From an uncultured Candidatus Saccharibacteria bacterium (GTDB lineage: Bacteria > Patescibacteriota > Minisyncoccia > JACPXH01), in NCBI GenBank assembly GCA_964409225.1, contig CAYPCM010000003.1, positions 1 to 58,908 on the forward strand: a DNA stretch of 58,908 bases. The letters run 5' to 3'. Shown one piece after another: positions 3,878-49,554 of the stretch. Position numbers and translations under genes: made by a program. Numbering within the stretch: position 1 is the stretch's first letter; each line of letters begins with the position of its first letter. Below the pieces are notes generated by a model that saw nothing but the letters and a program-made list of their open reading frames with translations, did not search any database and had not been told where the DNA came from.

Positions 3878-3883
3878 AGCCAA

Positions 3884-3992
3884 AATTTTCAATTTTGAAT
3901 TTTTAATTTCCAATGAATAATGAATATTGAATGGTCGAATTTTGAAACATTCAGTCATTCGAGTTTGATTCGAAATTCAGAATTCAAAATTC
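3884..3992. repeat. 7-nt-periodic AATTTTG/GAATT imperfect inverted-repeat element overlapping the 3' end of rpe
   Basis: Left arm aattttc-aattttg-aattttt-aatttcc-aatgaat-aatgaat; right arm cattcag...gaaattc-agaattc-aaaattc. Confidence 0.75.
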
Positions 3993-19080: not shown

Positions 19081-20696
19081 GTTGGCATTCCTTTCAAGAC
19101 ATAGATGCACCCCTCATTGGCCAGTACGACCCGCCTCACAACTTCAGCCGCGGGCAATTCCAGACACTTGCGGCTGACCACGATCGGAGCGGTAAACTCA
19201 CGAGCTACGCGTATCAGCTCCAAGCCGCCTTCGCCGTACGCGCGTTTGACCGCTTGGTAGCGGCGGTGCCACTCCAGCATCGTATCAGAACCGAGCGAGT
19301 AGGCAAACGCCCGATCCCGACTCTGAACCACTACCGGCCGGCGCGTGCAGATGCGCATAGCCGCCCACAGGTCGGGATCGTGCAGGATAGCACCGGGAGG
19401 AATATCCGCCTTGGCGAGCGCCCGATACATGTCAGCGTCACAAGTATGGTAACTATAGGCAGGGTGGAGCCGGCGATCCACCCAGTTTGTAAGACGCGCT
19501 TTCAGCCCCCAAGCCGCCACGACCAGCAAGACCAGGAAAACTCCGCCGAACACTTTCGCGCGTGGTCTTGTGAACCACCCGGCGAACTCAGGCCAGAACC
19601 GAGCGAGGAACAACGCCAGGTACGGCAGGAACACGAGATAGACATACTGCAGCCCGCGCGGTTGGTTCCAAAACGGAATTTTGTACCAAACATAAAGCCG
19701 AAAAATTTGGACGAGTGCGAAGGCCGCGTTAAAGACGAACGTGGCAACGAGAAACAAAAGGGCAAACCGATCGAAGACCGAGACCCCCTCCCGCCGGTGC
19801 CACCAACGCACCGCCGCCATCGCCGCCACGAACGGCCAAAACGCATACCACTGATTAAAAATCCAATACCTTAAGCTCCGCGCAAGCCCGGGGAGGGTGG
19901 TGTGGTGCGCCACGGCTAAAACTGCAGCGCGCGCGTCGGGATCGACTGGATTGAAGGCGGTCAGGTGCTGGACGCCTGGCACGTAGTGGGTGGTGAGGTA
20001 GGGAGCGCTCGCGAGTACGCTCACCAGCCCCGCGATCGTCACAAAACGCAAGGTTCTCCAACTCAAACCTTGCCAGAATACATAGGTAAGCATAAACGCT
20101 CCCACAATGTTAAAGGCGGTGATGATATGGAGGTTGCCCATGAGACCGGCGACCAGAAACACCAACAGCATTGTTCGTTCATCGGCGCGCGCGAGAGCTA
20201 AGAAAAACGCGAGGAACATTAGCGGCAGGATGGCCTGGTACAACGTCCAGGGATCAAGCCCAGACGGGCCAGGCAGACCCCACTCGGCGGTAAAAATGTA
20301 AAGGTGCCAGTTGGCAATGAAAGCAACGAACAGACTCACCGGCGCATTACCGGTGAGTCGCCAGTTGAGTTCGAAGAAACTGACGGTAAAAATCGCAAAC
20401 ACCACCGGCAGGAGCGCCCAGATCGCCACTTCATCGCTCCTAAACAGCCGTCCCAGCCACGCGAAAAACTGAAAAGCGAAGTGGTTATCCACGAGCGCAC
20501 GTTTGGGGTTGCCCAAAAGGTAATCCTGACTAAAGGGGTTGGGCTGGGCTTCGGCCATGACTACAAGCGTACGATCGATCTGGTCGTGCGTGAGACGATT
20601 GGGCCGCGCGAAAAAAAGCAAGGTGAGGCCCGCCACCGCAACGAGCGCGTAAACCAGGGCGCGCACCTGCCAGCGCTGGAGGGAGTTTACGCGCAT
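19077..20696 (-). CDS. Multipass membrane protein, putative GT-C-fold transferase
   Basis: About 11-12 TMs; acidic first loop (HDQIDR...FSQDYLL); soluble C-terminal domain; glycan-locus context. Family assignment is tentative. Confidence 0.55.
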   Translation of the reverse strand: MRVNSLQRWQVRALVYALVAVAGLTLLFFARPNRLTHDQIDRTLVVMAEAQPNPFSQDYLLGNPKRALVDNHFAFQFFAWLGRLFRSDEVAIWALLPVVFAIFTVSFFELNWRLTGNAPVSLFVAFIANWHLYIFTAEWGLPGPSGLDPWTLYQAILPLMFLAFFLALARADERTMLLVFLVAGLMGNLHIITAFNIVGAFMLTYVFWQGLSWRTLRFVTIAGLVSVLASAPYLTTHYVPGVQHLTAFNPVDPDARAAVLAVAHHTTLPGLARSLRYWIFNQWYAFWPFVAAMAAVRWWHRREGVSVFDRFALLFLVATFVFNAAFALVQIFRLYVWYKIPFWNQPRGLQYVYLVFLPYLALFLARFWPEFAGWFTRPRAKVFGGVFLVLLVVAAWGLKARLTNWVDRRLHPAYSYHTCDADMYRALAKADIPPGAILHDPDLWAAMRICTRRPVVVQSRDRAFAYSLGSDTMLEWHRRYQAVKRAYGEGGLELIRVAREFTAPIVVSRKCLELPAAEVVRRVVLANEGCIYVLKGMPT

Positions 20697-30399: not shown

Positions 30400-31098
30400 T
30401 CAGCTCAGAAACAACGAATCTTTCCAGAATGCAAGGAGTTGCCTGAACATGAGGCCGGCCGTTGCAAAAGTAACATGTGATTTCCCACCCACCCGCCGCT
30501 GGTAGGGGATGGCAACGTGAACGATTCGCATGCCTCGTCGCCTCGCTTTCGTCAAAATCTCAATGTTGATCGCGAAGTTTGTTGACTGAATATCGAGAGC
30601 GTCGAAATCTTCCCGCGCAAGAACAAGCGGATGGCCATTGACGTCAGGAATCCACACGGAGAAGAGCGCGCTCGCCAGGAGACTGTAGCCGTAGCCCGTA
30701 AATTTCCGGAGGATGTTCTCCCGAGATATCCGTTTTGCCTTACACACCGCGTGCGGGTTTTTCCTTGCAGTATCAAAGATCTGTATCAGATACTCAGGGA
30801 GTACTTGGCCGCCCGCGGTGGTGAATCCGACATACTCCCCCCGGGCTATGCGCATCCCTGCGAGCACCCCTCCCCCCAACCCCGCATTCTCTCTGAGCGA
30901 AACTGTCCTTACCCGCGGGTTGTGCGCACATGATGCAAGAATCATTCCAGTGCGATCCCGGGAACCGTTATCCACGAGAATAAGTTCAGCATCCACCTCC
31001 TCCCCATCGCAGTAATCGAGGATTCTTTGGATAACAAAGGCGGCTTGGCGTTCTTCGTTATAGAAAGGGATAACAATTGAGTAGAGCGGTCGCCCCAT
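30400..31098 (-). CDS. GT2 glycosyltransferase (DPM1-like, soluble)
   Basis: VIPFYNEE, VDNGSRD, N.GLGG and EIL.KA motifs. The usual DxD reads TAGGQ. Start at MGRPL (31098). Confidence 0.8.
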   Translation of the reverse strand: MGRPLYSIVIPFYNEERQAAFVIQRILDYCDGEEVDAELILVDNGSRDRTGMILASCAHNPRVRTVSLRENAGLGGGVLAGMRIARGEYVGFTTAGGQVLPEYLIQIFDTARKNPHAVCKAKRISRENILRKFTGYGYSLLASALFSVWIPDVNGHPLVLAREDFDALDIQSTNFAINIEILTKARRRGMRIVHVAIPYQRRVGGKSHVTFATAGLMFRQLLAFWKDSLFLS

Positions 31099-31189
31099 AT
31101 CTCGATGCCCCATAGACGCTGAGCAACTCAAACAGGAAATCTTCGACAAAGTTCGAACGTATAATACCCTTACCCAGAAAGGGTTGTCC

Positions 31190-31651
31190 ACTGAACGCAT
31201 CCCCGCCTCGGGGAAGGTTTACGACGCGGAAGAACTCCTGAACCTGGTTGATACCTCACTCAAGTGATTCTGGACAGATGGCGAGGCGACGTCGCTCTTT
31301 GAAGCACGACTCGCCAAGTTCCTCGGGGTGCAGTACGCAGCCACCACGAACTCGGGTTCGTCCGCAAACCTTGTTGCCCTCTCCGCTTTCACTTCCCCGA
31401 TGCTCCCAGAAAAAAACGGCTACGCCCGGGAGATGAAGTAATAACAGTCGCCGCCGGGTTCCCAACCACCACCAAACAACCCTACTTTGTAAGCCATAAA
31501 TTCGCCTACCGGCTTACCTGGAACTTGGGAAACACCGACTTCATCATGCATAACGCCTTTTGGATCGGCGTGTATTCGGCCATGAAGGAACAACACATCG
31601 AAATACATCGGTTCGATATTCGACAGGTTCTTCAGAGAGAAAAAGCGGTAA
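31190..31651 (+). pseudogene. rfbH: rfbH/ddhC (CDP-4-keto-6-deoxyglucose 3-dehydrase E1) remnant with internal deletion, nonsense codon and two frameshifts
   Basis: RIPASGKVYDAEEL..LV..SL*FW...FE..LAKFLG....TNSGSSANL.AL..TSP.L...RLRPGDEVITVAAGFPTT is joined directly to KQPY.....YR....L.NTD.IM...FWIGVY......I.YI...F..FF. TGA at 31265; frameshifts at the A7 run (31410-16) and at 31601-03. Confidence 0.85.
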
Positions 31652-34864: not shown

Positions 34865-35825
34865 CCCCGATACCGATCGGGTGCTGATAACGGGTGCGAC
34901 GGGGTTTGTCGGCGCAAACCTGGCCCGCGCGCTCGTTCAACAGGGCCGGCAGGTCGCCGTCATCACGAGGCAAAACTCTAATCCTTGGCGGCTCGCCGAG
35001 GTGCAGGGTTCGCTCGAACAGCACGTGGCCGACCTCGCCGACGCGCCCGCGCTTCGGCAGATCGTCCAGAAGGTTCAACCCACCGTCATCTTTCATGCGG
35101 CGGCGGCTTCGGTCTACGGCGATCAAGTGCCTGCCACTGAATCGGAGATGGTCCGGAGTAATCTCATCGGCACCATGAACCTCATCCGCGCGTGCGCCGA
35201 CATCAACTACCGCTGTTTTGTGAACACCGGCAGCTCCTCGGAGTACGGTCCGAAAACCGAACCGATGGTCGAAACCGATCTAGCCGCACCCCGCGACATC
35301 TACGGCGTTACCAAGTGCGCGGCCACCCACTTCGCCGCGGCCGTCGCACGCCAAGAGCACAAACCCATTTTGACTCTTCGACTCTTCTCGCCATTCGGCC
35401 CCTATGACGACCCCCGGCGGCTGATTCCAACCGCTATAGTAGCCGCGCTCACAAGCCGCGATATCAAACTTGCGCGTCCGGAGATTGGCCGCGATTACGT
35501 TTTCATTGATGACGTGGTGGCCGCATATTTGGCTGCGGTCGAGCGCGCCCGGGAAAACGAAGGGGAAATTATTAACATCGGCTCTGGCCGGCAGACGACA
35601 CTCGAAGAAACCGTCGCCACCCTCTTCACGCTCGTGAAGTCGCCCGGCCGGGCGCTGTGGGGCGCGGCCCCGGGCTCGCCCCAGGATAACCCCCTCTGGC
35701 AGGCCGATATAGAGAAAGCCCGCGAGCGCCTGGGTTGGCAACCCCGGGTGGCGTTCCGGGAGGGCTTGCGCCAGACAGTAGAGTGGTTTCGCGAACACCT
35801 CGATCGCTACGCTTTTTCGCCATGA
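34827..35825 (+). CDS. NAD-dependent epimerase/reductase (extended SDR)
   Basis: GATGFVG, GSSSEYG and YGVTK motifs. Alternative GTG start at 34881. Confidence 0.9.
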   Translation: MKHPRPRPPKSTNPDTDRVLITGATGFVGANLARALVQQGRQVAVITRQNSNPWRLAEVQGSLEQHVADLADAPALRQIVQKVQPTVIFHAAAASVYGDQVPATESEMVRSNLIGTMNLIRACADINYRCFVNTGSSSEYGPKTEPMVETDLAAPRDIYGVTKCAATHFAAAVARQEHKPILTLRLFSPFGPYDDPRRLIPTAIVAALTSRDIKLARPEIGRDYVFIDDVVAAYLAAVERARENEGEIINIGSGRQTTLEETVATLFTLVKSPGRALWGAAPGSPQDNPLWQADIEKARERLGWQPRVAFREGLRQTVEWFREHLDRYAFSP

Positions 35826-36637
35826 CTCCCGCCCGGCTCAAAACACTTGAGCACCACGCTCGAAACATCCGACGGCAAACCCTCACCATGACGAGCCGGG
35901 TCAAGGCGGCGCACACGGGCGGGTCGCTGTCGGTAGCTGATATCCTGACGGTACTCTACTTTCAGATCCTCCGCCTGAATCCGAAACGGCCGCACGACCC
36001 AAGCCGCGACCGGCTGCTCTTCAGCAAGGGGCACGCCGCCGCAGCGCTCTACGCCACACTTGCCGAGCGCGGCTTTTTCTCGCCAAAAATGCTCGATGGT
36101 TTCTACCGCAACGGCACGCTGCTCACCGGGCACCCCACGCGTAACTGTCTCCCCGGGGTCGAAGTCACTTCTGGTTCGCTCGGACACGGTTTGGCTATGG
36201 GTGCGGGGCTGGCCTGGGCCGCGAAACTCGACCGTAAGCCCTACCGCACCTTCGCCATCTTGAGCGACGGGGAATGTGACGAGGGTTCAGTGTGGGAGGC
36301 GATACTCGCTGCCGGCCATCGCCGACTCGATAACCTCATCGCCATTATCGACTACAACAAGCTCCAGAGCTTCGGCACCACCAAAGAAGTGCTGGATTTG
36401 GAACCGTTCAAAGCGAAATGGGCTGCTTTTCGATGGACAGTGCGCGAGGTTGACGGACACGACCTGACCGCGCTTACTACGCTCTTGAGTCGCGTTCCAT
36501 TCCGGAAAGGCAGACCGAGTGCGATCATCGCGCATACGATCAAGGGCAAGGGAGTGTCATTTTATGAAAACACCCTCAAATCCCACTACCAGCCGCTCGA
36601 CGAGCAGCAACTCGCCGACGTACTCGCCACCCTATGA
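35822..36637 (+). CDS. Transketolase-like N-terminal subunit (second copy, glycan locus)
   Basis: HTGGSLS, SKGHA, GHP, GSLGHGL, SDGECDEG and HTIKGKG motifs; ATGA overlap fixes the start at 35822. Confidence 0.9.
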   Translation: MTPARLKTLEHHARNIRRQTLTMTSRVKAAHTGGSLSVADILTVLYFQILRLNPKRPHDPSRDRLLFSKGHAAAALYATLAERGFFSPKMLDGFYRNGTLLTGHPTRNCLPGVEVTSGSLGHGLAMGAGLAWAAKLDRKPYRTFAILSDGECDEGSVWEAILAAGHRRLDNLIAIIDYNKLQSFGTTKEVLDLEPFKAKWAAFRWTVREVDGHDLTALTTLLSRVPFRKGRPSAIIAHTIKGKGVSFYENTLKSHYQPLDEQQLADVLATL

Positions 36638-37560
36638 GACCTGCATTCGTTCGCGCCCTCACTGCTGCCGCTGCCAAAGACCGACGGATCGTGCTGCTCA
36701 CTGGCGACCTTGGCTATAACGCCCTCGAACCTTTCAAGGATAGGTTCCCGGACAGATTCCTCAACATGGGCTTGTCTGAACAGAACATGGTGGGGTTTGC
36801 GGCCGGGCTCGCGCTCGCCGGCAAAATCCCCGTCGTCTACTCCATCGCGACCTTCATGACGCTCAAAACCGTGGAGCAGCTGCGCAACGACGTTTGCTAC
36901 CAAGGACTCAATGTGAAAGTTGTGGGGGTTGGCGCGGGGCTCACCTATTCGCAGTACGGCGCGACCCACCACGCGACTGAAGACATTGCGCTGATGCGAC
37001 TCTTACCCTCCATGAAAGTTATCTGCCCGGGCGATCCTGTTGAGGTGACTGGGGCAACACATGCCCTGCTCAAGGATCCCGCACCCTGCTATTTGCGCAT
37101 TGGCGCACGGGGCGAACCCAACATCCACCCGAAATCCATTTCGTTCCGGATCGGCCGAGGGTACCTGGTGCGGCCGGGCAAAGATGCGGTGCTCATCGCA
37201 ACCGGCAATATGCTGGCCAACACCGTTGCGGCGGCTCAGATCCTGGCTAAACGCGCCGCCCACATGACGGTAGTCAGCATGCCAACGGTTAAACCCCTCG
37301 ACGAAGCACTCCTGCGCAAGCTTGGCCGCACCTTCCGCCATCTCTTTACCGTTGAAGAACACACGACCATCGGCGGATTCGGCAGCGCGGTGGCCGACTT
37401 TCTCGCGGACGAACATGAACAACCACGCCTGCACCGCATCGCGCTCGCAGACGAATTCCAGAAGACCACGGGCTGGCTCGATTGGCTACGAGCACAAAAC
37501 GGCCTCTCACCAGAAGGCATAGCCAAAACGGTATTGAGGACGCTCAAGAAACGCTCATGA
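36634..37560 (+). CDS. Transketolase-like C-terminal subunit (second copy)
   Basis: LTGDLG, GLSEQNM, GATHH and TVEEH motifs. Confidence 0.9.
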   Translation: MRPAFVRALTAAAAKDRRIVLLTGDLGYNALEPFKDRFPDRFLNMGLSEQNMVGFAAGLALAGKIPVVYSIATFMTLKTVEQLRNDVCYQGLNVKVVGVGAGLTYSQYGATHHATEDIALMRLLPSMKVICPGDPVEVTGATHALLKDPAPCYLRIGARGEPNIHPKSISFRIGRGYLVRPGKDAVLIATGNMLANTVAAAQILAKRAAHMTVVSMPTVKPLDEALLRKLGRTFRHLFTVEEHTTIGGFGSAVADFLADEHEQPRLHRIALADEFQKTTGWLDWLRAQNGLSPEGIAKTVLRTLKKRS

Positions 37561-38504
37561 TGACCGCGAAGAAAATTTCCGCCATCATTGCCTGCTACAA
37601 GGACGAACCGGCAATTCCGATCATGTACGAGCGGCTCACGCGGACCTTCCAGAAGATCGGCCCGAATTACGAGATCGTCTTCGTCAACGATGGCAGCCCG
37701 GACAACTCGGAAGCGGTACTCGCCGAATTAGCGGCTCAAGATCAACACGTGGTGGTAATCAACCACTCTCGTAATTTCAGCACCCAGAACGTTCATTTGA
37801 GCGGCATGGAAATCGCAACCGGCGATGCGGTGGTGCTACTCGACGGCGACTTGCAAGATCCGCCCGAACTCATTGAACAGTTCGCCGAGAAGTGGCTCGA
37901 GGGCTATGACGTGGTTTACGGCATCCGGGTCAAACGCGAGGCCCCGGGCTGGATGCAAATTGCCTATAAGCTTTTCTACCGAATTTTCCAGAAACTCGCG
38001 TACGTGAAGATCCCCCTTGATGCCGGCGATTTTTCGCTTCTGGACCGCAAAGTGGTACGCGTCTTAAACCAAATGCCAGAGGTAGATCGTTTCACCCGCG
38101 GCATGCGCGCTTGGGTAGGATTTCGTCAAACCGGCGTCCCCTACGTACGGCCCGAGCGAATGTTCGGCCGCTCCACCAATAATCTCTGGCGGAACATCCG
38201 GTGGGCGAAAAAGGGCATATTTTCCTTCTCGTACGCACCGCTTGAGTGGGTTTCGTTCATTGCGGGGGTCGTAACGGTGCTCGCCGCCCTCGCCATTGTG
38301 GTTTATATAGTCCTCGCCATCATATGGCCTGCCCCGCGCGGGTTCCTGTCAATACTCATGGCCATTCTCTTTTTCGGAGCAGTGCAGCTTTTGGCGCTTT
38401 CGGTCATCGGTGAATACATTGCCAAAATCTTCGAAGAGGTCAAACGCCGTCCAAAGTTCATTGTAAAAAGCATATTCAATGATCCTCGACAGAAGACGCC
38501 CTGA
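37557..38504 (+). CDS. GT2 polyprenol-phosphate glycosyltransferase (GtrB type), paralogue of 15160-16098
   Basis: VNDGSPD, SRNF, LDGDLQDPPE and RAWVGFRQTGVPYVR motifs; two C-terminal TMs; ATGA overlap start. Confidence 0.9.
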   Translation: MMTAKKISAIIACYKDEPAIPIMYERLTRTFQKIGPNYEIVFVNDGSPDNSEAVLAELAAQDQHVVVINHSRNFSTQNVHLSGMEIATGDAVVLLDGDLQDPPELIEQFAEKWLEGYDVVYGIRVKREAPGWMQIAYKLFYRIFQKLAYVKIPLDAGDFSLLDRKVVRVLNQMPEVDRFTRGMRAWVGFRQTGVPYVRPERMFGRSTNNLWRNIRWAKKGIFSFSYAPLEWVSFIAGVVTVLAALAIVVYIVLAIIWPAPRGFLSILMAILFFGAVQLLALSVIGEYIAKIFEEVKRRPKFIVKSIFNDPRQKTP

Positions 38505-39143: not shown

Positions 39144-39176
39144 CAGGTCCGACACCGTTCGACGGTGTCGGACCTG
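39144..39176. terminator. Perfect 15-bp hairpin between convergent genes (bidirectional terminator or REP-like element)
   Basis: CAGGTCCGACACCGT-tcg-ACGGTGTCGGACCTG. Confidence 0.7.
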
Positions 39177-39200: not shown

Positions 39201-41261
39201 CTATCCGGTCGGACGCGCTACCTTTAGCCGATAAACATCAAGCGTGCGCAGCGTTTCAACCTTGTCGTACCGCTCTTGAACCCGCGCCATGAAGTATTGA
39301 ACCTGATCGTTTGGCTCGCGCGCGACGAACAGATACGGCGGCGGCTCGGCCCTTGTCTGCATAGCGAGCGCATCCATCTGGGAGGCAAAAAAGATGTTAA
39401 AAAGATAATAGGAGTCGAGGGCATTTGGCCGCTCGGCAGAAATGAGTACCTGCGTGTCGCGCGGGGAAATCACGGCGAGGCGTTTGAGCTGCGGGTAACG
39501 TCGTGCCATCGTCCTACCATCCTCGTATTCAGCCCGCCACGAGAGTTCTCGCTCCCCAAAACCGCTCAAGCTTTCAGAAATACGGCGGTAATCTCGCCCG
39601 GCGAACTCTACCGGCGCCTTGGCAATGAAAAGCAACGCCGCCAAGCAAACCAGGGCATAGGCAGCGGCAGTGAGCGTCCGGCTCGACCAAGCCGGCTCAA
39701 GCCGAACCTCGTCTCCAAGGGCATAGTGCTTAAAAAAATAGAGTAACACGAGTACCAGTGGACCCGTAGTCAGATACAGGTTCTGCCAGGACGATTCACC
39801 AACGTAATAGAGTAAGTTGAAAATTCCGAAGAAAAAGAGAAACACGAGCGGCAGGTCCAACGTACGACCTTGCTGATGCTCCGAGAAAAGCACGAGGCCA
39901 ACGACGAGGTACAAAAATACCATCACCTCAAAAACGCCGAGCGCCGGCAGCGGGGTCATGCCAATACCCGCTCCGAAGTGAGCAACCTCTCGCCAAATGA
40001 GCGCCCAATTCGGCAAGACCCCGAAGACAGCCGCGTTCACGAGACCGACAAGGGCAGCCACCACACCGATCGCCAGCGCATACTGTCCGGCAAGTCGCAG
40101 GAGCACGAGTACCGGTCGACTAGCAGAACGAGTGGCGCAATACGCAAAGGCGAGAAACGATGCGGCAACGACATATAAGCCCGCGTCAAAGACCCAAAAA
40201 AGCGCGACAGCCGAGCAGAAGATCGCGCCCGTGCGCCAGATGGGCCGACCCGTTTTGCTGAAAGCGAGAAGTAAAAAAAGTATCAGCAGGTACCAGCCGT
40301 AGCGCAGCGGCGTCATGGCCGGGAAAAACAGGGCTGAACGGGTTGGGCTCGTCTGGAAAAGGTACAGGATCGAATAGAGGCAGAAAATGCCGACCATGGC
40401 CAAGAGCCGTGAGTGGAGCCACTGCTTGATGAACAGATACATCCCCACAAAGAACGCGCCGAAGAAGAAGGTGATGATGAGGGCGGCCATCGGGTAGGTC
40501 AACGGAAGCAGGTACGTAAAGACGAAGGCGAGAAAGTATACGTCGAAGAGCCCGTACAGATGGGTGGTTTCGTAGAGCAGCGCCTTGCCGTAGAGCATGT
40601 CGTTGACCGACCCCAAGAAGAAATTGTAGTGGTGCGGATCCAACGGGAAATTTGGGTGGAAGACGGCGAGCGCAATCGCGAAAACGAGGAATGCCTCAAA
40701 CTTTCCCCACCCCGGATATGCAGCGGTGCGCCGCAGCCAGGCGAACCCGGGTCGGCGGCGCGAAAACAAAAACCATACGAATACGGCCGCACTCACCAAT
40801 AAGATAAGAGTGGTTATGAAAATGCGCTTGGTGAACAAAAGCCAGAGTGCTTGGCTGAATCCTGCCGTGGCTAGGTAGTCCAGGTAAAAACTGAAATTGA
40901 TGCGACTCAAGCGCCAGGCAACCAGCAGGACCCCCGAGACAGCTACCATAAGAAGCAACAAACGCAAAGCGCCCGGCGACACCTTCGGTACTCGTCGCAG
41001 ACCCGAATACAAAAACCAGGCCAGGAGCGGGATTACAAGGTAACCGGCAAGGTAGAGCGCCGCCTCGAGTGGCTCGGGTTGAGAAAGCCGGCTAAAACTC
41101 GCAAAGAGGTCGGGCGCCGACCGCGCCAAGCCGAACGTGTGATAAAGCCAGTCCTGCAGGAAACGACTGGCCGCAAAATACACCGCCACGGCCACGGCTA
41201 AGGCCGCGCCGTACTGCGGCCGCTCGAGAACTTGTTCGCTGAACCGTCGCCACCAACTCAT
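39201..41261 (-). CDS. Large multipass membrane protein, putative GT-C transferase (paralogue 1 of 3)
   Basis: PNFPLDPHHYNFFLGSVNDMLYGK.LLYET..LYGL loop; about 13-15 TMs; C-terminal TLDVYR. Confidence 0.7.
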   Translation of the reverse strand: MSWWRRFSEQVLERPQYGAALAVAVAVYFAASRFLQDWLYHTFGLARSAPDLFASFSRLSQPEPLEAALYLAGYLVIPLLAWFLYSGLRRVPKVSPGALRLLLLMVAVSGVLLVAWRLSRINFSFYLDYLATAGFSQALWLLFTKRIFITTLILLVSAAVFVWFLFSRRRPGFAWLRRTAAYPGWGKFEAFLVFAIALAVFHPNFPLDPHHYNFFLGSVNDMLYGKALLYETTHLYGLFDVYFLAFVFTYLLPLTYPMAALIITFFFGAFFVGMYLFIKQWLHSRLLAMVGIFCLYSILYLFQTSPTRSALFFPAMTPLRYGWYLLILFLLLAFSKTGRPIWRTGAIFCSAVALFWVFDAGLYVVAASFLAFAYCATRSASRPVLVLLRLAGQYALAIGVVAALVGLVNAAVFGVLPNWALIWREVAHFGAGIGMTPLPALGVFEVMVFLYLVVGLVLFSEHQQGRTLDLPLVFLFFFGIFNLLYYVGESSWQNLYLTTGPLVLVLLYFFKHYALGDEVRLEPAWSSRTLTAAAYALVCLAALLFIAKAPVEFAGRDYRRISESLSGFGERELSWRAEYEDGRTMARRYPQLKRLAVISPRDTQVLISAERPNALDSYYLFNIFFASQMDALAMQTRAEPPPYLFVAREPNDQVQYFMARVQERYDKVETLRTLDVYRLKVARPTG

Positions 41262-43273
41262 AGGTCAGCGCGCCGGTAAACATCGAGTGTCTGCCAGGAT
41301 TCGACTTTGGTGTACTGCGCGCCGAGACTCGCCGTAAACTGATCGAGTCGCACGTCGCGCACTCGCCCGATAAATACATGGGGCGCGCGCTCTCGGAAGA
41401 CCTGATCGGTGAGCACCTGAAGGTCTTTGGGCGTAACCACGTTGAGATGGTCATAGATGGGGAATGCATTGACGCGACCGGCCAAAATCAGGAGCTTCGC
41501 ATCGAACAGGTGCAGGAGCGGCACGCGCCCGAGAGTTGGAAAACGCTCGCGCAACTTCCGGGCATCCCCAAGGAGCTCTCGGTCTTCGACTCGGGTCGCC
41601 GTGAGGTTTTGCCGGACGTGACGATAGTCCCGACCCCAGAACTCCGTCGGGATTTTGATCGCAAGCACGAAGGCAACGAACACGAGACCTGCGGCAAAGA
41701 GATGGCCTGCGAGGAGCGGAGTCCGAGGACGCGGTTCGCGGATGAATACCGTGTGGAATACAAATAGTATAAGCAGTATGAACGGCGTCGCGACGGCTAA
41801 AAGGTACCCCCAGACGGAAGTGCCAACGTAGTAGACAAATGAGAAGATGCCATAAGCCAACACGAAGATCATGGTTGGTTCAAGCGGCCGCCCTGCTTTA
41901 AGCCGCCAGAGTACCCACAGACACGCGGCCACATACCCGAAGACAAACAGTTCAAAAATTCCGATTACCGGCAGCGGAATCTTGGCAAAACCAGAATTGA
42001 ATAACCCTACCGCCTGTAAAATAAGTCCCCAGTTGGGCCAAGCGCCGTAGCGAAGCGCATTGAGGACATTCACGACAGCGAACAGCGCCACAACGTAGAT
42101 CCCAAGCCGTGCCGCCACGAGCCCAAAGCGCCGCAGGCGGACGCGCCAGGGCTGACCGAGAGCGAGTTCTTGGTAGGCAAAGAAAGTAATCGTGGCAATC
42201 AAGACCGCCACGCCAGTATCGAAATTCCAAAACAGTGCGACTGAGGCAAGCCCAAGCACAAGCTCACGGCGCAGCCCTGAAGGACGCGCCACGTACCCGA
42301 GGAGCGCGAGCAATACCACCGCCACAAAACCATAGCGGAAAGGCGTGAGCCCAGGGTAGAACATGGCTGAACGGAAGGGATCCACGTGCAAAAAGTAGCT
42401 CACCGCGACGATGGCGGCGGTTCCGATCACCGCGAATATCTCTGACCGCAGCCAACGCCTGATAAACACGTACAGCGCCGTATAAAAGAGGATGTACGAA
42501 AGGGCAAAGATGAGCGAGAGATAACTGTAGCCGATGGGAAACACATACCGAAACAGGAAAGCGGCAGCATAGATGTTGAAGAGCCCATACTGATTGGTTG
42601 TTTCATAAAGCAGCGCTTTGCCGTGGAGCATGTCGTTGACGGTGCCGAGTACGAAATTGTAGTGGCCGTCGTAAGAAAAGTTTGGGTCAATCACGATCAC
42701 GGCCAGAATCAGGGGCACCCACGGCCGCAGCTTCCGACAGAATGTCTCGACCCCGGGCCGAGTGAGCCAGCCGAATGTCGGCTGACGCCACCAGACGCGA
42801 AAACCCACAAACGCAACCAGCGCCGTAAGCACGGCAAGCCGGGCGATGAAAAGTCGCTTGGTAAAAAGCAGCCACAGCATCTGCCCGATCCCCTGCCGAG
42901 AGACGTATCCACCAACGTCAAGTGCAGCGAAACGCTCAAGAGCAAACACCGCCGCAGCCACAAACAACAAGGCCAACCCACCAAAGAAGAATGTCCGCCG
43001 GTACGGCGCAAAGCGCGGAGCGAGACGCTGCCAGAGGACGTACAACCCCCACGCCATGAAAGGGATTACGAGGTAGCCCAGGAAATAAAGAGGGATTTCA
43101 TACGGTTCTGGGCGTACGGAAAAACCCGGAAAAGCTTCACGGACAAGATCAGAGGGGCCAGCCCGAACAGAAAGCCAATCCTGAACGAAACGGCTAACCA
43201 CATAGTAAAACACCGTGGCCCCAACGAGGCACCAAACGTACACCGTTAGGTTGAGTGCGCGTAGGAAACGCAT
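41258..43273 (-). CDS. Large multipass membrane protein, putative GT-C transferase (paralogue 2 of 3)
   Basis: PNFSYDGHYNFVLGTVNDMLHGK.LLYET..QYGL loop; C-terminal TLDVYR. Confidence 0.7.
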   Translation of the reverse strand: MRFLRALNLTVYVWCLVGATVFYYVVSRFVQDWLSVRAGPSDLVREAFPGFSVRPEPYEIPLYFLGYLVIPFMAWGLYVLWQRLAPRFAPYRRTFFFGGLALLFVAAAVFALERFAALDVGGYVSRQGIGQMLWLLFTKRLFIARLAVLTALVAFVGFRVWWRQPTFGWLTRPGVETFCRKLRPWVPLILAVIVIDPNFSYDGHYNFVLGTVNDMLHGKALLYETTNQYGLFNIYAAAFLFRYVFPIGYSYLSLIFALSYILFYTALYVFIRRWLRSEIFAVIGTAAIVAVSYFLHVDPFRSAMFYPGLTPFRYGFVAVVLLALLGYVARPSGLRRELVLGLASVALFWNFDTGVAVLIATITFFAYQELALGQPWRVRLRRFGLVAARLGIYVVALFAVVNVLNALRYGAWPNWGLILQAVGLFNSGFAKIPLPVIGIFELFVFGYVAACLWVLWRLKAGRPLEPTMIFVLAYGIFSFVYYVGTSVWGYLLAVATPFILLILFVFHTVFIREPRPRTPLLAGHLFAAGLVFVAFVLAIKIPTEFWGRDYRHVRQNLTATRVEDRELLGDARKLRERFPTLGRVPLLHLFDAKLLILAGRVNAFPIYDHLNVVTPKDLQVLTDQVFRERAPHVFIGRVRDVRLDQFTASLGAQYTKVESWQTLDVYRRADL

Positions 43274-43403
43274 GGCATATGCACGTACCCAAGAAGATTA
43301 TTGCTCCGACCTTTCACGGATTCTCCATCCTCCGTAGCGGCACCGAACGAGAATATCCGAAAATGCCAAAATAGTAGTCTTCGAGCTCATTGTCGAACGT
43401 GGT

Positions 43404-45515
43404 TTACCGCGTCTGCACGACAAGATCCTTCAAGCGGAGCACATCTAACGTTGACAGATGGCGATCAACCGTATAGAGATCCCCCACTCCGCCGAGGAAA
43501 TACGCTATTTTGTCGGTGTACTGAGCAAAGGGACGAAAACCCGGGCTACCGACACGCCCCACGAACAGGTAGGACGGTTTCTCAAGGCGCGTTTTCGCAA
43601 TAACCTTCTCCAGTTGCGGCTTGAGAAAAACAGACTGCAAGTTCATCATGGGCAGGAAATTCGTTTTATTGAGGTCAAGCAGAATTTTACCGTCGTACCA
43701 ATGTACCAACGCAGGCCGCTGAATGCCGGCGTAGTCTTTTTTGAGTATGGCAATGTCGCTTAATATTTCGGTGTACCCGCCATACACTTCACGGCGACCA
43801 ACAATCTCAGCAAAATAATTCTGCCGGATGGTGGCATAGTTGCGAGCGCTCAGCGTCCACCAAACTCTCGCACCCCCGTAGAATACCGCCATCGTAGCTA
43901 CCCCTACAAGGATTGCTGAAAAAGCGCGATAGAGCTCTGGCGATCGGCGCTGCGCAGTCAAAAAAACATGACACCACCACGCCACCAACACAATGAGAAA
44001 AATTGACATACGTGGCGCGAGATTGAAAGTGTGGGGGCGAACCAAATAATAGAAAAACTGTGATACTCCGAAGAGAACTATGAAAAGCGGCATCAGGAGC
44101 TCGTCGGTCTTTCGATGCTGATACGCCTGCCCAACGATGTAGCCGAGGCTGACGATAAATACAAAAATGTACACGTAATACAGGCCGTGACTCGGTAAAT
44201 CGATCAATTGATATCCCTTCCGATACACTGACGAGGCCTCATAGAGGAGCGACCACTGCGGCCATCTGCCCCAGCGCAAGTACTGCGTGACCGAATAAGA
44301 AAATGCTAACCCAACAATTCCGCCGATTAACTTGGTAACCTGCCACAGAAAAGATCGCACACGCTCTCGGAGCGGTTGATCTTGAAAAAGGGCCAAGAAG
44401 AAAAAAACTCCGAGCGTCGCAAAAACCAAATACATCCCGGTATCCACAAACCAGAAGAACCCGACTGCGGTTGCGAGGAGTATGGGGTTTTCCGTACGCG
44501 ATCGCACGGCAACACGCGTGCGGTAGCGCCACCACAGCCACGCGAGGGCAAGAAACATCAACTGATGGAACGGTGTATGGGCTGGCGGTCCGTACGCAAA
44601 GTCGAAGTGTGCAAGGGGGATGTTAAAGAAAATCACTATCGCGAGCACTACGCCGACTGCTAACACCTCGGAACGCAACCATTGCCTTACCAAGTAATAC
44701 CACCCCAGAGACCAGAGCATAAATGCCGCCGCCAACACCGCGGACAACGCATGGTAAGAAATCGGAATCAAAAAACGGAAGATGGCATAGAGGAAATAGG
44801 TGTTGAGTAAACCGTAGGGGCTGCTCGTATCGAAGAGGAATTGCTTGCCGTGCAGCAAATCGTTCACTGGTCCCAAATGATCGTTGTAATGGTCGAGGTC
44901 GATGGGGAAATTGGGTGAAAAAATAAAAAGTAGAACGAACAGCAGCACCCACCACCGAATTTTCTGCCACGGCAATCGCTCAAGCCTGGCTATAAAAGAT
45001 GCAACCCCATACCGCCTGTGGTACCACCACAGCGCGATGAGCAGAGCCGCGACCGTAAGCGCCTGAATTTTGAGATCGCCCTGCGGTCGAATCTGCCTCC
45101 AGAGCTGCAACGCGAACAGATGGAGGGCGATGGTGTACAGCAAAAACAACAGGACACTCGCGAATAGTCCCATTGGCCATCGCTTCACGAAGGCCGGGGT
45201 CAGGTACTCGTGTTCAAGCAACCAGCGGCAACCGGAGACGACCCCGAAGGCGAGCAGCGGGATGATCAGGTAACCCGCGAGGTAGACTGGGATGACGTAC
45301 GGCTGCGGCCGGAATACGAGCTGGGTGAAATAAAAAGCTTCCGGGAGAATCCGGGAGGTATGATGACGGGCGAAATCTAAGAGGGGTGCCGCCAGCTGAT
45401 AGTACAGAACGACCGATCCGGCGATCGCCGGAACCCACAGACCCTCTTGATTGCCGTGCTGGACTCTCCGAACCAGCGCTTTGCCGATCTCGGCCGCTCG
45501 GACGGACCAGCTCAT
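43404..45515 (-). CDS. Large multipass membrane protein, putative GT-C transferase (paralogue 3 of 3)
   Basis: PNFPIDLDHYNDHLGPVNDLLHGK..L.DT...YGL loop; C-terminal TLDVLR. Start at MSWSV (45515). Confidence 0.7.
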   Translation of the reverse strand: MSWSVRAAEIGKALVRRVQHGNQEGLWVPAIAGSVVLYYQLAAPLLDFARHHTSRILPEAFYFTQLVFRPQPYVIPVYLAGYLIIPLLAFGVVSGCRWLLEHEYLTPAFVKRWPMGLFASVLLFLLYTIALHLFALQLWRQIRPQGDLKIQALTVAALLIALWWYHRRYGVASFIARLERLPWQKIRWWVLLFVLLFIFSPNFPIDLDHYNDHLGPVNDLLHGKQFLFDTSSPYGLLNTYFLYAIFRFLIPISYHALSAVLAAAFMLWSLGWYYLVRQWLRSEVLAVGVVLAIVIFFNIPLAHFDFAYGPPAHTPFHQLMFLALAWLWWRYRTRVAVRSRTENPILLATAVGFFWFVDTGMYLVFATLGVFFFLALFQDQPLRERVRSFLWQVTKLIGGIVGLAFSYSVTQYLRWGRWPQWSLLYEASSVYRKGYQLIDLPSHGLYYVYIFVFIVSLGYIVGQAYQHRKTDELLMPLFIVLFGVSQFFYYLVRPHTFNLAPRMSIFLIVLVAWWCHVFLTAQRRSPELYRAFSAILVGVATMAVFYGGARVWWTLSARNYATIRQNYFAEIVGRREVYGGYTEILSDIAILKKDYAGIQRPALVHWYDGKILLDLNKTNFLPMMNLQSVFLKPQLEKVIAKTRLEKPSYLFVGRVGSPGFRPFAQYTDKIAYFLGGVGDLYTVDRHLSTLDVLRLKDLVVQTR

Positions 45516-45668: not shown

Positions 45669-48098
45669 CTAGGGCAAACCGAAAGGTGCAAAGCGAAACT
45701 CAATGCGATGGCGACCGGCAGGCACCTCAATGGCTTGCAGAATGTAGTTAGCGCGGTGTATCACCGCCGGCTTGCCATCCAGCGTGGCTGTCCAGCCCGG
45801 CAAAAAGTTCTGCCCGAACACAAACCAACTGGCCTCATCCAAGCTGACTTCAAATACATACTGTTGATTGCGGGTGATAGCTAAGGGCACGGAGCGTTGC
45901 GCACTGCTTGAAGACTGATGGGGGCACAAGACGCAGGTGATCAGTGTTGATGTTTTGCCGCCAAGTACGTGACTAGTAAATTGCTCCCACTCGCCGTCCT
46001 CGTCTGCCGGTGGCACGAACGTTACGTTGTTGGTGAGGTAGTAACGGGGCTCAACGCCGGTATTCTCGTAAAGGTATAGAGGAATTTTATGACGCGTAAC
46101 CTCCCAGCGATGCGCTTCGGTAAGCTGCGGATGCTCGAGCGGGTAAGCGCTGATAATGTACTTCACGTTAAAAACTGACAGCACCGGCAGCCGCGCCATA
46201 ATGAGGTCGAGCTTTCCTTCTAGCGGCAGTTTTTCCTTGGCCAGCCCCGTCCCCCCCGTGGCTCTGTCACTCCCCAAAAAACCTATAATCCGGCTGCTGC
46301 GCCGATCCATGAGGTTGTCGTAGCCGTCGAGCGAATCAATGCCATAGAGTAGTTGGAGGTTCGCGGCGAGCAACTCCTGGTGGAATCGCACATTGTCAGC
46401 GGGCTCAAAACCGTAAGGGGTATCGAGTTTCGAGAATGCCGTAAAACCGGGCAGCACGCTGAAAACCCGATACGGCTCGGCGCTGCGCTCCCGTACTTTG
46501 AGGAACTGGACCACCTCTGGCGGGCTCTTGAGGGTCTTGGCTAACACCATCGGAAAGCGACCAACCGCCAACGCCGTAAGGTTGATGGCGGTGAGTGCAA
46601 TCGCAATCATCGCGAAACGCGCGGCAGAGAGTGAACGGTGAACGTACCAATAGACGAGGACGGCGGCCGCGACCAAAGCGATGAAGCCCACGGTAAATTC
46701 CACACTGACGAAGGTGGTGCTCTGCCAAAGAACTCCGAGCTCACGGCTGATCACGTTGTGGTAATGCTCAAGGGGAAGCTGAGTAGTGCGGGAATAAAGG
46801 TGGGTATCGAAGTATCGCAATACAATCGCCAATAGGCGCTCGCGGAAGATAATACTCACGAGATTCCAAACTCCCATAATACCGACAAACACGCCTACGC
46901 CCACGGTGATTCGTTTACTCAAAGAGAAAAGCTTCCTTCTCCCCGCCTCGCTCAAGGGGTATTCAAAGCCAAAAGCCGCAAGCACCGCGAGTGCGAACGT
47001 GCCCACGTACATCCAGCGGCTCGGGACCCTAAAGAGCGCCAGAGCCGGGAGCTGATGAAACAATAAAAAGAGGGGTGAATATTGAAACGAAGCAATGAGC
47101 GCGAGTCCAAACAACCACCGGAAAAAATGCAGGGTTGGTTGCCGGGGTATGGCAAAGGAAAGAAGGAATAACAAAAAGGGCAAGGCGCCGACCGTAAGCA
47201 CCCCGGCCTGGGCGGTCAGACGCGGCACGTTGAAACCCGGCAGCAAGTAGCCGCCCAGATCAACGACGGTAAGCCCACCGCTAAACGCCTCGGAGATCCC
47301 GACTCCGCCCTGTCGGCTCGAGAGGGGCGAGACGAGGGCGGAAAGCAAAAGCTGGGGCGCTGCGACAACCACACCCACCACAACCATCGCGCCAAACCAA
47401 AGCGTGACGCTTCGCCACCACCAACTCCCGGTACTAGCCGTGCCAACGCGCCGGGATCGAATATCAAGAAATAACGCCCAAGCGAACACGGCCACGAGGT
47501 TCTGGAAGAGCCACTGGGGGTGAGCGCCGTAGAAATTGAAAGCCACCACAGCAGCCCCGACAGATCCCAGGAGCCACCGCGTTCGGCGAGCGGACGGATA
47601 TTCGGCAAGTCGCAGCGCAACCAAAAAGAGTACGGGCAGCGTCCAATAGGCGTTGGTCACAAGCAGGCTCGACCCAAACGACACATAGATCGCTGACCAA
47701 GGCACGATGAGTCCGGCGAAGATTGCCGCCGCACGCCCCAGGCCGAGCCGCCGCACGAACAGATACGTAAACCAACCCGTGAGGATGAAATTGCCGGCGG
47801 TGAAAACGTGGTAAAACGTAAAGGTATCGAAGATCCTCAAGAGCGCCACATTGATCGGCGACAGAAAAATGTTCAGCATGCCGCCCGCGAGCGTAAATCC
47901 GGTCAGCACACCGGGCGTCCACAACCACGATTGGCCACTCAAGAGCGACTGGCGCAGGAAGTGCAATGCCGGGTACAGAATCAGCAGCGCGTCACCGTCG
48001 GCAAAGACGCGGCCGAAAAACAACACCGGCGCAAAAACAATAAAAGCCGGCACGGCCAACAATAGGAACGGCCACGTTCTCTGCCAGCTAAATCTCAT
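45669..48098 (-). CDS. YfhO-family membrane protein (GT-C-like)
   Basis: LWTP....G, GAHPQ, FRVPSRW and PYRV...IDSLDGYD...QNFLPGW.AT.DG....I.RAN...A..VP.G.H.IEF.F motifs. Confidence 0.85.
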   Translation of the reverse strand: MRFSWQRTWPFLLLAVPAFIVFAPVLFFGRVFADGDALLILYPALHFLRQSLLSGQSWLWTPGVLTGFTLAGGMLNIFLSPINVALLRIFDTFTFYHVFTAGNFILTGWFTYLFVRRLGLGRAAAIFAGLIVPWSAIYVSFGSSLLVTNAYWTLPVLFLVALRLAEYPSARRTRWLLGSVGAAVVAFNFYGAHPQWLFQNLVAVFAWALFLDIRSRRVGTASTGSWWWRSVTLWFGAMVVVGVVVAAPQLLLSALVSPLSSRQGGVGISEAFSGGLTVVDLGGYLLPGFNVPRLTAQAGVLTVGALPFLLFLLSFAIPRQPTLHFFRWLFGLALIASFQYSPLFLLFHQLPALALFRVPSRWMYVGTFALAVLAAFGFEYPLSEAGRRKLFSLSKRITVGVGVFVGIMGVWNLVSIIFRERLLAIVLRYFDTHLYSRTTQLPLEHYHNVISRELGVLWQSTTFVSVEFTVGFIALVAAAVLVYWYVHRSLSAARFAMIAIALTAINLTALAVGRFPMVLAKTLKSPPEVVQFLKVRERSAEPYRVFSVLPGFTAFSKLDTPYGFEPADNVRFHQELLAANLQLLYGIDSLDGYDNLMDRRSSRIIGFLGSDRATGGTGLAKEKLPLEGKLDLIMARLPVLSVFNVKYIISAYPLEHPQLTEAHRWEVTRHKIPLYLYENTGVEPRYYLTNNVTFVPPADEDGEWEQFTSHVLGGKTSTLITCVLCPHQSSSSAQRSVPLAITRNQQYVFEVSLDEASWFVFGQNFLPGWTATLDGKPAVIHRANYILQAIEVPAGRHRIEFRFAPFGLP

Positions 48099-48817
48099 CG
48101 CCGTCGAAAACGATAATAGAGCAAGTTGCGCAGAAACTCCCAGATGGCCGACGGCGGCACGAACGAGGCTCGCCGTTCGTTCTTGAAAAAGATGGTTGAG
48201 GCCTCTCCGATTTTCAAATTATGACGAAGCGCTTCGATCATGATTTCGGCATCCGTAAACCAATCATTCGAAACGAGATGCATCTGCTCGAAGGCGGCGC
48301 GCGTCATGACCTTGGGCTTCGAGTTAACGTCACGCAGTTTCGCTTTAGGCCGAAAAAGAAACCAAAAGAGCCAGTTGTAAATGACCGAGATGGTACGCCG
48401 GTACAGGCCGTCGAAGCGCTGCGCCCGGAATGTTTTAACGAGGTCATACGTACCCACCTGCAAAAGTCGATAAACCTTAACGATATCGGAAGACGGCATC
48501 TGGCCATCGCCGTCGATAACACAAATGTGTTCACCCGCAGCTGCTTCGAGCCCGGAACGCATGTCCCAGCCCATCATCCCCTCTTTCGCTTTCGCGACGA
48601 CGACACAACGGGGGTTGACAGCGGCAATCTCGCGCACTATCTGCGGGGTGCGATCGCTCGAACCCGACCAGAAGTTAGCCACTAAGACGAGTTCGTAGTC
48701 AATCTTCGCCTCTTCGAGCTCGCGCACAATTTGCGCCACGAATTCTCGCGCGAGCTCCTCAGCTCGGTAACACAGAACCACGACCGAAAGTTCAGGCCGA
48801 GGGACAACGCTATTCAT
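48095..48817 (-). CDS. GT2 glycosyltransferase (DPM1-like, soluble)
   Basis: LSVVVLCY, IDGDGQ, R..RFDG.YR and WF.DAEI motifs; ATGA overlap start. Confidence 0.85.
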   Translation of the reverse strand: MNSVVPRPELSVVVLCYRAEELAREFVAQIVRELEEAKIDYELVLVANFWSGSSDRTPQIVREIAAVNPRCVVVAKAKEGMMGWDMRSGLEAAAGEHICVIDGDGQMPSSDIVKVYRLLQVGTYDLVKTFRAQRFDGLYRRTISVIYNWLFWFLFRPKAKLRDVNSKPKVMTRAAFEQMHLVSNDWFTDAEIMIEALRHNLKIGEASTIFFKNERRASFVPPSAIWEFLRNLLYYRFRRR

Positions 48818-49554
48818 GCCTTTCGCGCCAAACATACCACCGATGAGCCAACCGGGAGCCGCCCCCCGCGGACAAGAATCTTTGCTTCTACCTTAGACAG
48901 CCACACGAGGAATGCATCGAGCCACCGCGGCAATTCAACGTACGAAAATTGGGGGTGGAAGCGCCGCTCTTGGAATTGCCCCACGATCCGGTACGTAAAT
49001 ACCAGCGGGAAAACGAAGAAGAACAGATAGCTCGACTTAACAATCTCAAAGCCAGCTTTCTCCAGCTTCATCTCAAGTTCACGGCGCTTGTAGCGTCGGC
49101 GGTGGTGCAACGCCTCGTCCAATTCGCTCCAGAGCGTCTTGAAAGCCGGTACGCTGATAAGCGTATATCCCCCTGGCTTCAAAATCCGGCTGATCTCAGC
49201 TAGCGCGCGCAAATCATCGTCAAAATGCTCTAGCACGTCAAACATGGTGACCAGATCCACAGACCCGGTCCCGAGCCCCGTATCGTACACTCCCCGCATG
49301 AGCGCCACGTTCCTAGCGCCAGTGCGCCGACAAAACTCAAGGGCCTTATCCGAAATGTCAAGCCCGAGTACGGTCCCGAACTGCCCGAGCATAGAGAAGT
49401 TGCCACCCGTGCCGCAGCCGATGTCGACCACTCGGGCTTCCGTTGTCGGATGCAAGAAACGCTTAAGCAACCGATCAAACACATACCGCCTACCTACATA
49501 CCACCAGTAGCGGTTCTCGAGCTCGTAGGTTTTGTCGTACGCTTGATCTTGCAT
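48814..49554 (-). CDS. Class I SAM-dependent methyltransferase
   Basis: E...WWY.GRR, DIGCGTG, FDVLEH and HHRRRY motifs. Confidence 0.9.
   Translation of the reverse strand: MQDQAYDKTYELENRYWWYVGRRYVFDRLLKRFLHPTTEARVVDIGCGTGGNFSMLGQFGTVLGLDISDKALEFCRRTGARNVALMRGVYDTGLGTGSVDLVTMFDVLEHFDDDLRALAEISRILKPGGYTLISVPAFKTLWSELDEALHHRRRYKRRELEMKLEKAGFEIVKSSYLFFFVFPLVFTYRIVGQFQERRFHPQFSYVELPRWLDAFLVWLSKVEAKILVRGGRLPVGSSVVCLARKA

Follow-up and report, generated by a model that had tools for sequence, protein, structure and literature searches.

Three old paralogues with a predicted glycosyltransferase C fold at the end of an operon in a glycan locus of an uncultured Candidatus Saccharibacteria bacterium

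Why should a bacterium with a genome of 883 kb carry three diverged versions of one large membrane protein side by side, what might these proteins do, and how long have they been separate? These questions are raised by a stretch of 58,908 nucleotides from an uncultured Candidatus Saccharibacteria bacterium (positions 1 to 58,908 of contig CAYPCM010000003.1, assembly GCA_964409225.1; this whole stretch is referred to below as the window), in which three related genes lie next to each other between positions 39201 and 45515. The bacterium belongs to the Candidate Phyla Radiation (CPR, or Patescibacteria) and its genome, which is 98% complete and of CPR size, holds exactly 3 copies of the family, copy 1 matching the family profile at E=6e-250. 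We consider it probable that the three are enzymes of different specificity which decorate a surface glycan outside the membrane using polyprenyl-phosphate sugars. Predicted structures suggest that the family, which is uncurated, has the A-type fold of the class C glycosyltransferases (GT-C-A), and the paralogy is ancient, the array being an assembly of old subfamilies.

All three open reading frames (ORFs) are adjacent, intact and on the minus strand: copy 1 (P0001, 39201-41261, 686 amino acids), which belongs to the GT-C-fold family and comes last in its operon; copy 2 (P0002, 41258-43273, 671 amino acids), whose 3' end shares 4 bp with the start of copy 1; and copy 3 (P0003, 43404-45515, 703 amino acids), the most divergent of the trio. 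The longest ORF of copy 3 reaches 45581, and a start at 45515 gives the 'MSW' N-terminus that is also found in copy 1. A three-way alignment contained 105 invariant columns, with copies 2 and 3 being 38% and 29% identical to copy 1, and BLASTP aligned copy 1 with copy 3 over the full length (E=2e-58, 27% identity); pairwise identity thus ranges over 27-38%, and judged from these alignments homology among the three is far beyond chance. A first-pass annotation of this DNA had proposed three adjacent paralogues, which the ORFs, alignment and BLASTP result bear out, and the motifs that it listed were all found in the sequences. These are PExxE...Y..GYL.IP near the N-terminus, the main motif PNF..D..HYN..LG.VND.L.GK..L..T...YG (residues 197-230 of P0002), P..TPxR, and TLDV.R at the C-terminus, copy 3 having NDH where the other copies have NFF/NFV. 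The main-motif codons of copy 2 lie at 42584-42685 on the minus strand and encode PNFSYD-GHYNFVLGTVND-MLHGK...QYG, with the equivalent stretches at ~40551-40655 in copy 1 and ~44811-44915 in copy 3, both also on the minus strand.

The same annotation had called the family uncharacterised, and searches of Pfam and NCBIfam with the three copies agreed, giving nothing at E<1 beyond chance-level noise. Pfam likewise gave no match to 20 close relatives even at E<=10, nor to the membrane core of 10 distant family members, and profile searches against PDB sequences (with alignments of 20 and 116 sequences) returned hydrophobic noise only, such as heliorhodopsin at E=0.0017, and did not find ArnT, PMT or STT3. 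Particular families were considered in turn. Neither the three copies nor the 20 relatives matched YfhO (PF09586) at E<=10, and there was no Pfam match to PMT_2/ArnT-like proteins (PF13231, PF02366; GT83, GT39). When the 116-sequence family profile was aligned by hhalign to the PMT_2 protein of L003 (loci carrying family members in other genomes are given L numbers), the probability was 0.25%, and profile-profile alignment with a PMT_2 protein gave no signal from which a catalytic Asp could be located. For Wzy, WaaL and SEDS proteins, no Wzy_C match was obtained in the copies, though the window's own Wzy_C-TPR gene is detected, and no WaaL, RodA or FtsW chain was among the Foldseek matches listed for copies 2 and 3.

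Predicted structures gave a clearer answer. AlphaFold2 models were made for copy 2 from a 20-sequence alignment (predicted local distance difference test score, pLDDT, 85; predicted template modelling score, pTM, 0.88) and for copy 3 from a 66-sequence alignment (pLDDT 90.7, pTM 0.91), and transmembrane helices were taken from these models, crude hydropathy calling being too noisy. Each model shows ~15 long helices and, after them, an alpha/beta domain of ~125-150 amino acids at the C-terminus. In Foldseek searches every PDB match at E<=1e-3 was a GT-C enzyme (14 for copy 2 and 10 for copy 3). The best match of copy 2 was ArnT (5f15, E=5e-6, target TM-score 0.51), then DPY19, AftA, STT3 and PglB, and that of copy 3 was STT3A, with AftA, ArnT, DPY19 and PglB also matched, the STT3 matches coming from the yeast and human oligosaccharyltransferases (OST). 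Weaker matches were to PIG-U, ALG9, Pmt4, PIG-M and ALG3, and transporters and receptors appeared solely at E>0.03, with TM-scores of ~0.1. Because both models match GT-C enzymes exclusively at E<=1e-3, the GT-C assignment appears robust as a structural prediction. A GT-C protein has been defined as a polytopic membrane protein of 7-13 or more transmembrane helices with an extracytoplasmic domain (PMC11127046), and the models and loop charges indicate both a polytopic membrane protein and an extracytoplasmic domain here. The first-pass annotation had spoken of GT-C-like transferases: two high-confidence models with GT-C matches only uphold this at the level of fold, as the gene context does at its own level, and a role as transferase is what we infer from them.

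Model helices combined with loop charge point to an N-in, C-out topology, in which the C-terminal domain would be outside. Short loops rich in K/R (RR, RQ..R..RK.R, RR..R, R..RR, R.R.RR, R.K..R, R..R.R) alternate with the conserved loops, and the superfamily-conserved polar residues were all placed on the outer face. In copy 2 this face would present the main-motif loop (residues 195-248), the 'P..TPxR' motif (293-315), 'FWNxD' (348-354), 'G.WP.W...G..PLP' (410-439), 'YYxGxS' (481-486) and the C-terminal domain, and fully conserved columns make up 15% of the outer loops, 5% of the transmembrane helices and 2% of the inner loops. Conservation was measured in 147 representatives of the wider family aligned to the profile (copy 2 numbering). 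The D, H, N and D residues of the main motif had been put forward earlier as the conserved set, and of these the second Asp stood (D214, 94% D/E) but the first did not (D202, acidic in 57% of the 147), and the H and N are variable. Near-invariant residues beyond that set are K219 (98% K/R), Y229 and G230 (100%), R313 (96%), D352 (98% D/E), W415 (96-97%, a range that includes P413) and Y481 (97%).

How might these residues make an active site? In the copy 2 model the motif loop runs from a transmembrane helix (173-194) through helix 203-216, short strands and helix 231-243 into the next transmembrane helix (249-275), and acidic residues stand at both ends of helix 203-216, D202 at the N-terminal tip and D214 at the C-terminal end. 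GT-C-A proteins have been defined by a module of transmembrane helices 1-7 with two juxtamembrane (JM) helices between the first and second, JM1 carrying a catalytic Asp at its tip (PMC12041299), and the modelled pattern of one transmembrane helix, two short helices and another transmembrane helix, with an acidic helix tip, fits this definition, the motif loop then presumably being equivalent to the canonical first loop. Many distant family members align to the profile from position 150-190 onward only, and we lean towards a catalytic module that starts at the fifth helix, the first four helices being a family-specific addition. The active site would then be built from the outward main-motif loop, with helix 203-216 as JM1 bearing its acidic ends D202 and D214, while K219 and R313 would bind the donor phosphate and D/E352, W415 and Y481 would be contributed by later outward loops. 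We presume, from the residue roles in the 2016 ArnT structure, that an ArnT-like constellation of Asp and Lys/Arg is to be expected at the outer membrane face. The motif loop is followed by six transmembrane helices and these by an outer loop that contains a short helix and is modelled with low confidence at 428-430; we take this outer loop to resemble the flexible substrate-ordering loop of ArnT and PglB.

Copy 3 departs from this pattern. Together with its nearest orthologue, P0040, it has a His (H317 in copy 3) instead of the Arg that 96% of the 147 representatives carry in the TPFR motif and is without one or both of the N-terminal PExxE glutamates, and it retains D219, K224, Y234, D358 and W421. 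The His may mean a different phosphate-binding mode, or it could mean a different donor; GT136 has been proposed to use Tyr and His (PMC11127046).

A different reading of the same fold is that the proteins lack transferase activity and serve as a scaffold, as a substrate-binding subunit (compare PIG-U in the glycosylphosphatidylinositol (GPI) transamidase) or in the handling of lipid-linked sugars, working with YfhO or with the operon's PMT_2 protein. PIG-U chains are indeed among the structural matches, no sequence similarity to any proven enzyme was seen, a YfhO gene is constantly ahead of the array (YfhO orthologues precede family copies in L001, L011, L012 and L013), and a second protein for acceptor binding has been raised for some GT-C systems (PMC8035078). 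However, the PIG-U matches are weaker than those to enzymes (E ~1e-2, query TM-score ~0.27-0.31), the near-invariant outward set of D/E, K, R, D/E and Y looks like an active site, and family copies occur without YfhO in L003, L014, L016 and L020, so that we regard a non-catalytic role as decidedly unlikely.

The genes around the array bear on where a donor might come from. The operon runs on the minus strand from 58731 down to 39201 (three GT4 genes, a GT4-PMT_2 fusion, GT4, a methyltransferase, a short-chain dehydrogenase/reductase (SDR), a methyltransferase, a short GT2, YfhO, copy 3, copy 2 and copy 1), with the three family genes at its end, and between copy 1 and a convergent NUDIX gene there is a hairpin with a perfect 15-bp stem (39144-39176) that is probably a bidirectional terminator closing the operon. 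Directly upstream of the copies is a YfhO-family GT-C gene, P0004 (45669-48098, minus strand, 809 amino acids; PF09586, E=1.5e-12), which is outside the three-copy family: it was considered as a fourth paralogue and rejected when hhalign of the family profile against YfhO gave a probability of 0.3%. The family match P0052, also of 809 amino acids, was considered as this same YfhO protein and rejected, being another protein. The short GT2 (48095-48835, minus strand, 246 amino acids, PF00535), first gene of the cassette of GT2, YfhO and family copies, has partial matches to PgfS, ArnC and AglJ and no hydrophobic segment, and these matches make it a candidate synthase of the lipid-linked sugar donor. 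It and another short GT2 (30400-31200, 266 amino acids) match the catalytic half of PgfS, ArnC, AglJ and a dolichyl phosphate-hexose transferase, and neither has a transmembrane helix.

A second candidate donor synthase, again by similarity, is the PgfS/ArnC/GtrB-type GT2 at 37482-38504 (plus strand, 340 amino acids, convergent with copy 1), which matches PgfS at 6.5e-70 (profile 2-303 of 308) and ArnC at 8e-44, both under the equivalog cut-offs, and has a C-terminal hydrophobic region (252-314). It follows split transketolase genes in a plus-strand run convergent with the operon (DegT-like enzyme, thiamine diphosphate (ThDP) enzyme, epimerase, split transketolase and the 340-amino-acid GT2). 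A second GT2 of the PgfS/ArnC type lies at 15160-16098, and the earlier claim that the locus has GT2 genes of the polyprenyl-phosphate-sugar-synthase type was supported. The window also encodes Wzx, Wzy_C-TPR, GT9 and carbamoyltransferase proteins; no GtrA gene was found in it, the one GtrA homologue of this genome being on another contig.

These associations recur elsewhere. GT2 genes of the ArnC/PgfS type stand beside the array of the window and beside family members in at least 8 other genomes (L001, L003, L011, L013, L016, L017, L019 and L020); the cassette of short GT2, YfhO and family copy or copies is found in L001, L011 and L013, the L013 layout (GT2, YfhO and three copies) being that of the window; a GT2 and GtrA pair lies 1 kb from a family copy in L003; and a short GT2 comes directly after the copy-3 orthologue in L020. 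The split transketolase and a GT2 adjoin family copies in at least four other genomes (L001, L011, L017 and L019), mostly with the epimerase too (35735-38504 in the window), and the GT2 concerned is PgfS/ArnC-like in the window, L017 and L019 and is a short GT2 in L001 and L011. This transketolase-GT2 module suggests that an unusual sugar is made for lipid-linked transfer. In L019 the transketolase pair is present twice.

The identity of these partners also helps in weighing an OST-like function, in which a preassembled glycan would be moved en bloc from polyprenyl diphosphate to a protein (an S-layer protein or pilin) or other acceptor. The best structural matches include STT3 and PglB, with STT3A at the top for copy 3, and the Wzx flippase and the many GT4 and GT2 enzymes of the locus could build a lipid-linked oligosaccharide. 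On the other hand, the partner genes that are most closely linked and best conserved encode GT2s of the ArnC/PgfS/DPM1 type, makers of monophosphate-linked single sugars; a possible ligase, the Wzy_C-TPR protein, is already present; three to five paralogues per genome fit decoration better; and a WWDxG-type OST motif was not seen in the conserved columns. We therefore consider an OST-like function unlikely.

How old, then, are the three copies? In a maximum-likelihood tree of 56 sequences (IQ-TREE, LG+C20, with SH-aLRT support), they occupy three separate strongly supported clades, copy 1 grouping with L013_6607 (48% identity) and P0031, copy 2 with P0005 (76%, its nearest orthologue) and P0006, and copy 3, in a basal clade, with P0040 (47%). 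Other multi-copy genomes show the same scatter, their copies falling in different clades and making up differing combinations of subfamilies. Since the three clades each hold closer orthologues from other genomes, the paralogy is ancient and there was no recent triplication. The first-pass annotation had supposed a local triplication followed by divergence, which the tree contradicts, showing instead three old subfamilies with closer relatives elsewhere. A recent lineage-specific tandem triplication with rapid divergence afterwards would account for the adjacency of the genes, their shared strand and similar lengths, and the 4-bp overlap of copies 1 and 2, but relatives in other genomes are closer (48-76%) than those within the genome itself (27-38%), there is no DNA similarity beyond 129 nt at 76%, and a congeneric genome holds a different trio, all of which makes such an origin very improbable. 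That sole DNA-level likeness (40504-40632 against 42537-42665) encodes the main motif. Recent duplication or gene conversion was ruled out by the tree together with the absence of DNA repeats.

In the closest relative found (GCA_964373035.1, L019), the copy-1 orthologue (2132-4233) consists of two overlapping ORFs, split near residue 210-220 in the main-motif region, and the copy-2 orthologue beside it is intact (76% identity). One copy in genome G420 is split likewise. Such split copies represent either turnover or assembly error, that of L019 being either a frameshift or an assembly error.

The exchange of copies between related genomes is best seen in L013, a locus that matches in coordinates the same-genus genome G401. 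The methyltransferase and short GT2 of the window are 83% and 85% identical to their best L013 matches, the SDR 52% and YfhO 50%, and copies 1, 2 and 3 are 48%, 35% and 28% identical; the last three values imply that different subfamilies occupy two of the three positions. Shigella and Salmonella have gtr clusters in which gtrA and gtrB are conserved but each serotype has its own GT-C gene, and the conserved donor side and variable transferases seen here resemble these Gtr systems by analogy. Because the adjacent GT2 is 85% identical in the congener while the GT-C set has been replaced, the pattern favours the same donor with different acceptors or linkages over different donors. The earlier suggestion that the copies use different donors, matching the several GT2s, is by the same observation the less likely half of what had been proposed. 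The logic of Gtr-type multi-component glycosylation systems has been outlined previously (PMC8035078, PMC11127046).

The reading that we prefer, extracytoplasmic decoration of a surface glycan by three transferases, would work as follows. A GT2 at the cytoplasmic face would load a sugar onto polyprenyl phosphate; a flippase (perhaps the GtrA homologue on another contig or the Wzx of the window) would carry the lipid-linked sugar outward; and each paralogue would transfer that single sugar, outside the cytoplasm, to a different position or in a different linkage on a surface glycan or glycoprotein, the acceptor being built by the rest of the 59-kb locus. The data show homology, fold, outward-facing conservation, gene neighbourhood, ancient paralogy and the swapping of copies between related genomes, and from these we infer catalysis, the type of donor and the acceptor. 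Several points weigh against this reading. The whole of the evidence for the GT-C assignment is predicted structure, and TM-scores to GT-C enzymes are moderate (0.35-0.51); Pfam, PDB profiles and comparisons with PMT_2 and YfhO revealed no sequence-level tie to any characterised GT-C family; the lack of a GtrA gene in the window counts here too, as does the His of copy 3 in place of an Arg conserved at 96%; and four extra N-terminal transmembrane helices ahead of the module, if the mapping is right, would be atypical.

Comparison with known systems shows both likeness and difference. In GtrA-GtrB-Gtr(type) of Shigella and Salmonella, CsbB-GtcA-YfhO and GtlA-GtlB of Bacillus and Listeria, PgfS-PgfM1/M2 of Streptococcus mutans and GT136 of Citrobacter youngae, as in the window (where the role is assigned by homology), a GT2 that loads polyprenyl phosphate stands beside a polytopic GT-C protein with a conserved outward loop, the donor-side genes being conserved and the GT-C partner variable or type-specific. 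Several GT-A/GT-C pairs per genome are also known, for example in B. subtilis and L. lactis (PMC8035078). Unlike the proteins of those systems, the family has no sequence relation to YfhO, PMT_2 or other curated GT-C families, its arrays hold three to five copies behind a single GT2-YfhO pair, the array-adjacent GT2 is without the usual C-terminal transmembrane helices, GtrA is outside the locus, and the host of the window is a CPR bacterium with a 0.88-Mb genome.

ArnT (GT83; 5EZM/5F15), the undecaprenyl-phosphate-L-Ara4N transferase that is the best structural match of copy 2, is likewise polytopic with an outward C-terminal domain. It differs in that identity in the structural alignment is 12-13% with no similarity at the level of hidden Markov models (HMMs), it has 13 transmembrane helices where ~15 are predicted for the family, and its catalytic loop comes after the first helix whereas the catalytic-looking conserved loop of the family comes after the fifth; and the window genes that were scanned included no lipid A genes. 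The mycobacterial arabinofuranosyltransferases AftA, AftB and Emb (GT85, GT89, GT53) and the C-mannosyltransferase DPY19 (GT98) are GT-C-A fold matches and appear, on the models, to share with the family a juxtamembrane helix tipped by a conserved acidic residue. In arabinan synthesis a single lipid-linked donor serves several diverged GT-C paralogues, each with its own acceptor or linkage (PMC12041299), an arrangement that the family would share. Unlike those enzymes, the family has a small alpha/beta C-terminal domain (~125-150 amino acids) with no recognisable carbohydrate-binding module (CBM) and no sequence similarity to them, and neither a decaprenylphosphoryl arabinose (DPA) pathway nor a synthase dependent on phosphoribosyl pyrophosphate (PRPP) was found in the window. 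Literature searches combining GT-C with Patescibacteria or Candidate Phyla Radiation gave nothing. The family is novel in sequence within a well-known enzyme class and system type and is no new kind of system.

How widespread is the family? No more than 20 close relatives came from a word-indexed search; few of them are named, and those as 'hypothetical' (two of those names say Parcubacteria). A full HMM search through 1.84 billion cluster representatives recovered 2,543 at E<=1e-3, 1,584 at <=1e-10 and 281 at <=1e-30, giving ~2,500 family clusters counted at 50% identity; its named members were likewise hypothetical proteins, including one from Uhrbacteria. Species-representative genomes yielded loci from Parcubacteria, Doudnabacteria and, more distantly, Roizmanbacteria, and from two further bins with odd labels. 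Apart from these two bins, all named members and all fetched loci belong to CPR lineages, and the family has so far been seen mostly in CPR/Patescibacteria. At least 3 of 401 genomes in a phylum-wide sample matched at E<=1e-10 (a loose look in which at most 2 candidates were scored per genome), and 3 of 31 near relatives matched, with 3-4 copies each. The family is therefore patchy across genomes, yet it is multi-copy wherever flanking DNA was seen: there are three copies in tandem in L013, two in tandem in L012, L009 and L020, two copies in L001, L011, L003 and L014, and five of a distant subfamily in L016. The L016 copies (Candidatus Roizmanbacteria, MGAN01000001.1) lie within 13 kb and match the profile at E 1e-18 to 1e-37, and large arrays therefore also occur outside Parcubacteria.

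The window contains one further membrane protein without a family: a protein of 539 amino acids encoded at 19077-20696 has at least 6 hydrophobic segments and no Pfam or NCBIfam match. Its clear orthologue in L001 (4e-142) has DUF6798 as a faint Pfam match only.

CPR/Patescibacteria have very small genomes and poorly understood envelopes, and here ~0.7% of the genome's DNA goes to three old paralogues inside a 59-kb glycan locus. The predicted GT-C fold would give a name and a testable function to ~2,500 unannotated protein clusters, and the family, as a sequence-distinct addition to the GT-C class, could merit an entry of its own in CAZy or Pfam. For surface-glycan variation in these bacteria, the findings suggest a logic of conserved donor and swappable transferase, as in O-antigen serotype conversion. 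A bolder form of this idea, possible but doubtful in our view, is that the family is a CPR-specific GT-C branch acting as a combinatorial, rapidly exchanged 'serotype cassette' for a variable surface glycan, the Arg-to-His change of the copy-3 clade and the four extra N-terminal transmembrane helices being real mechanistic departures. One conserved donor from the short GT2, or an unusual branched or extended sugar from the module of split transketolase, ThDP enzyme and GT2, would then be placed at different sites by the subfamily members of each strain. If this were true, episymbiotic bacteria with tiny genomes would gain a variable glycan for attachment to their hosts or for evasion of phages.

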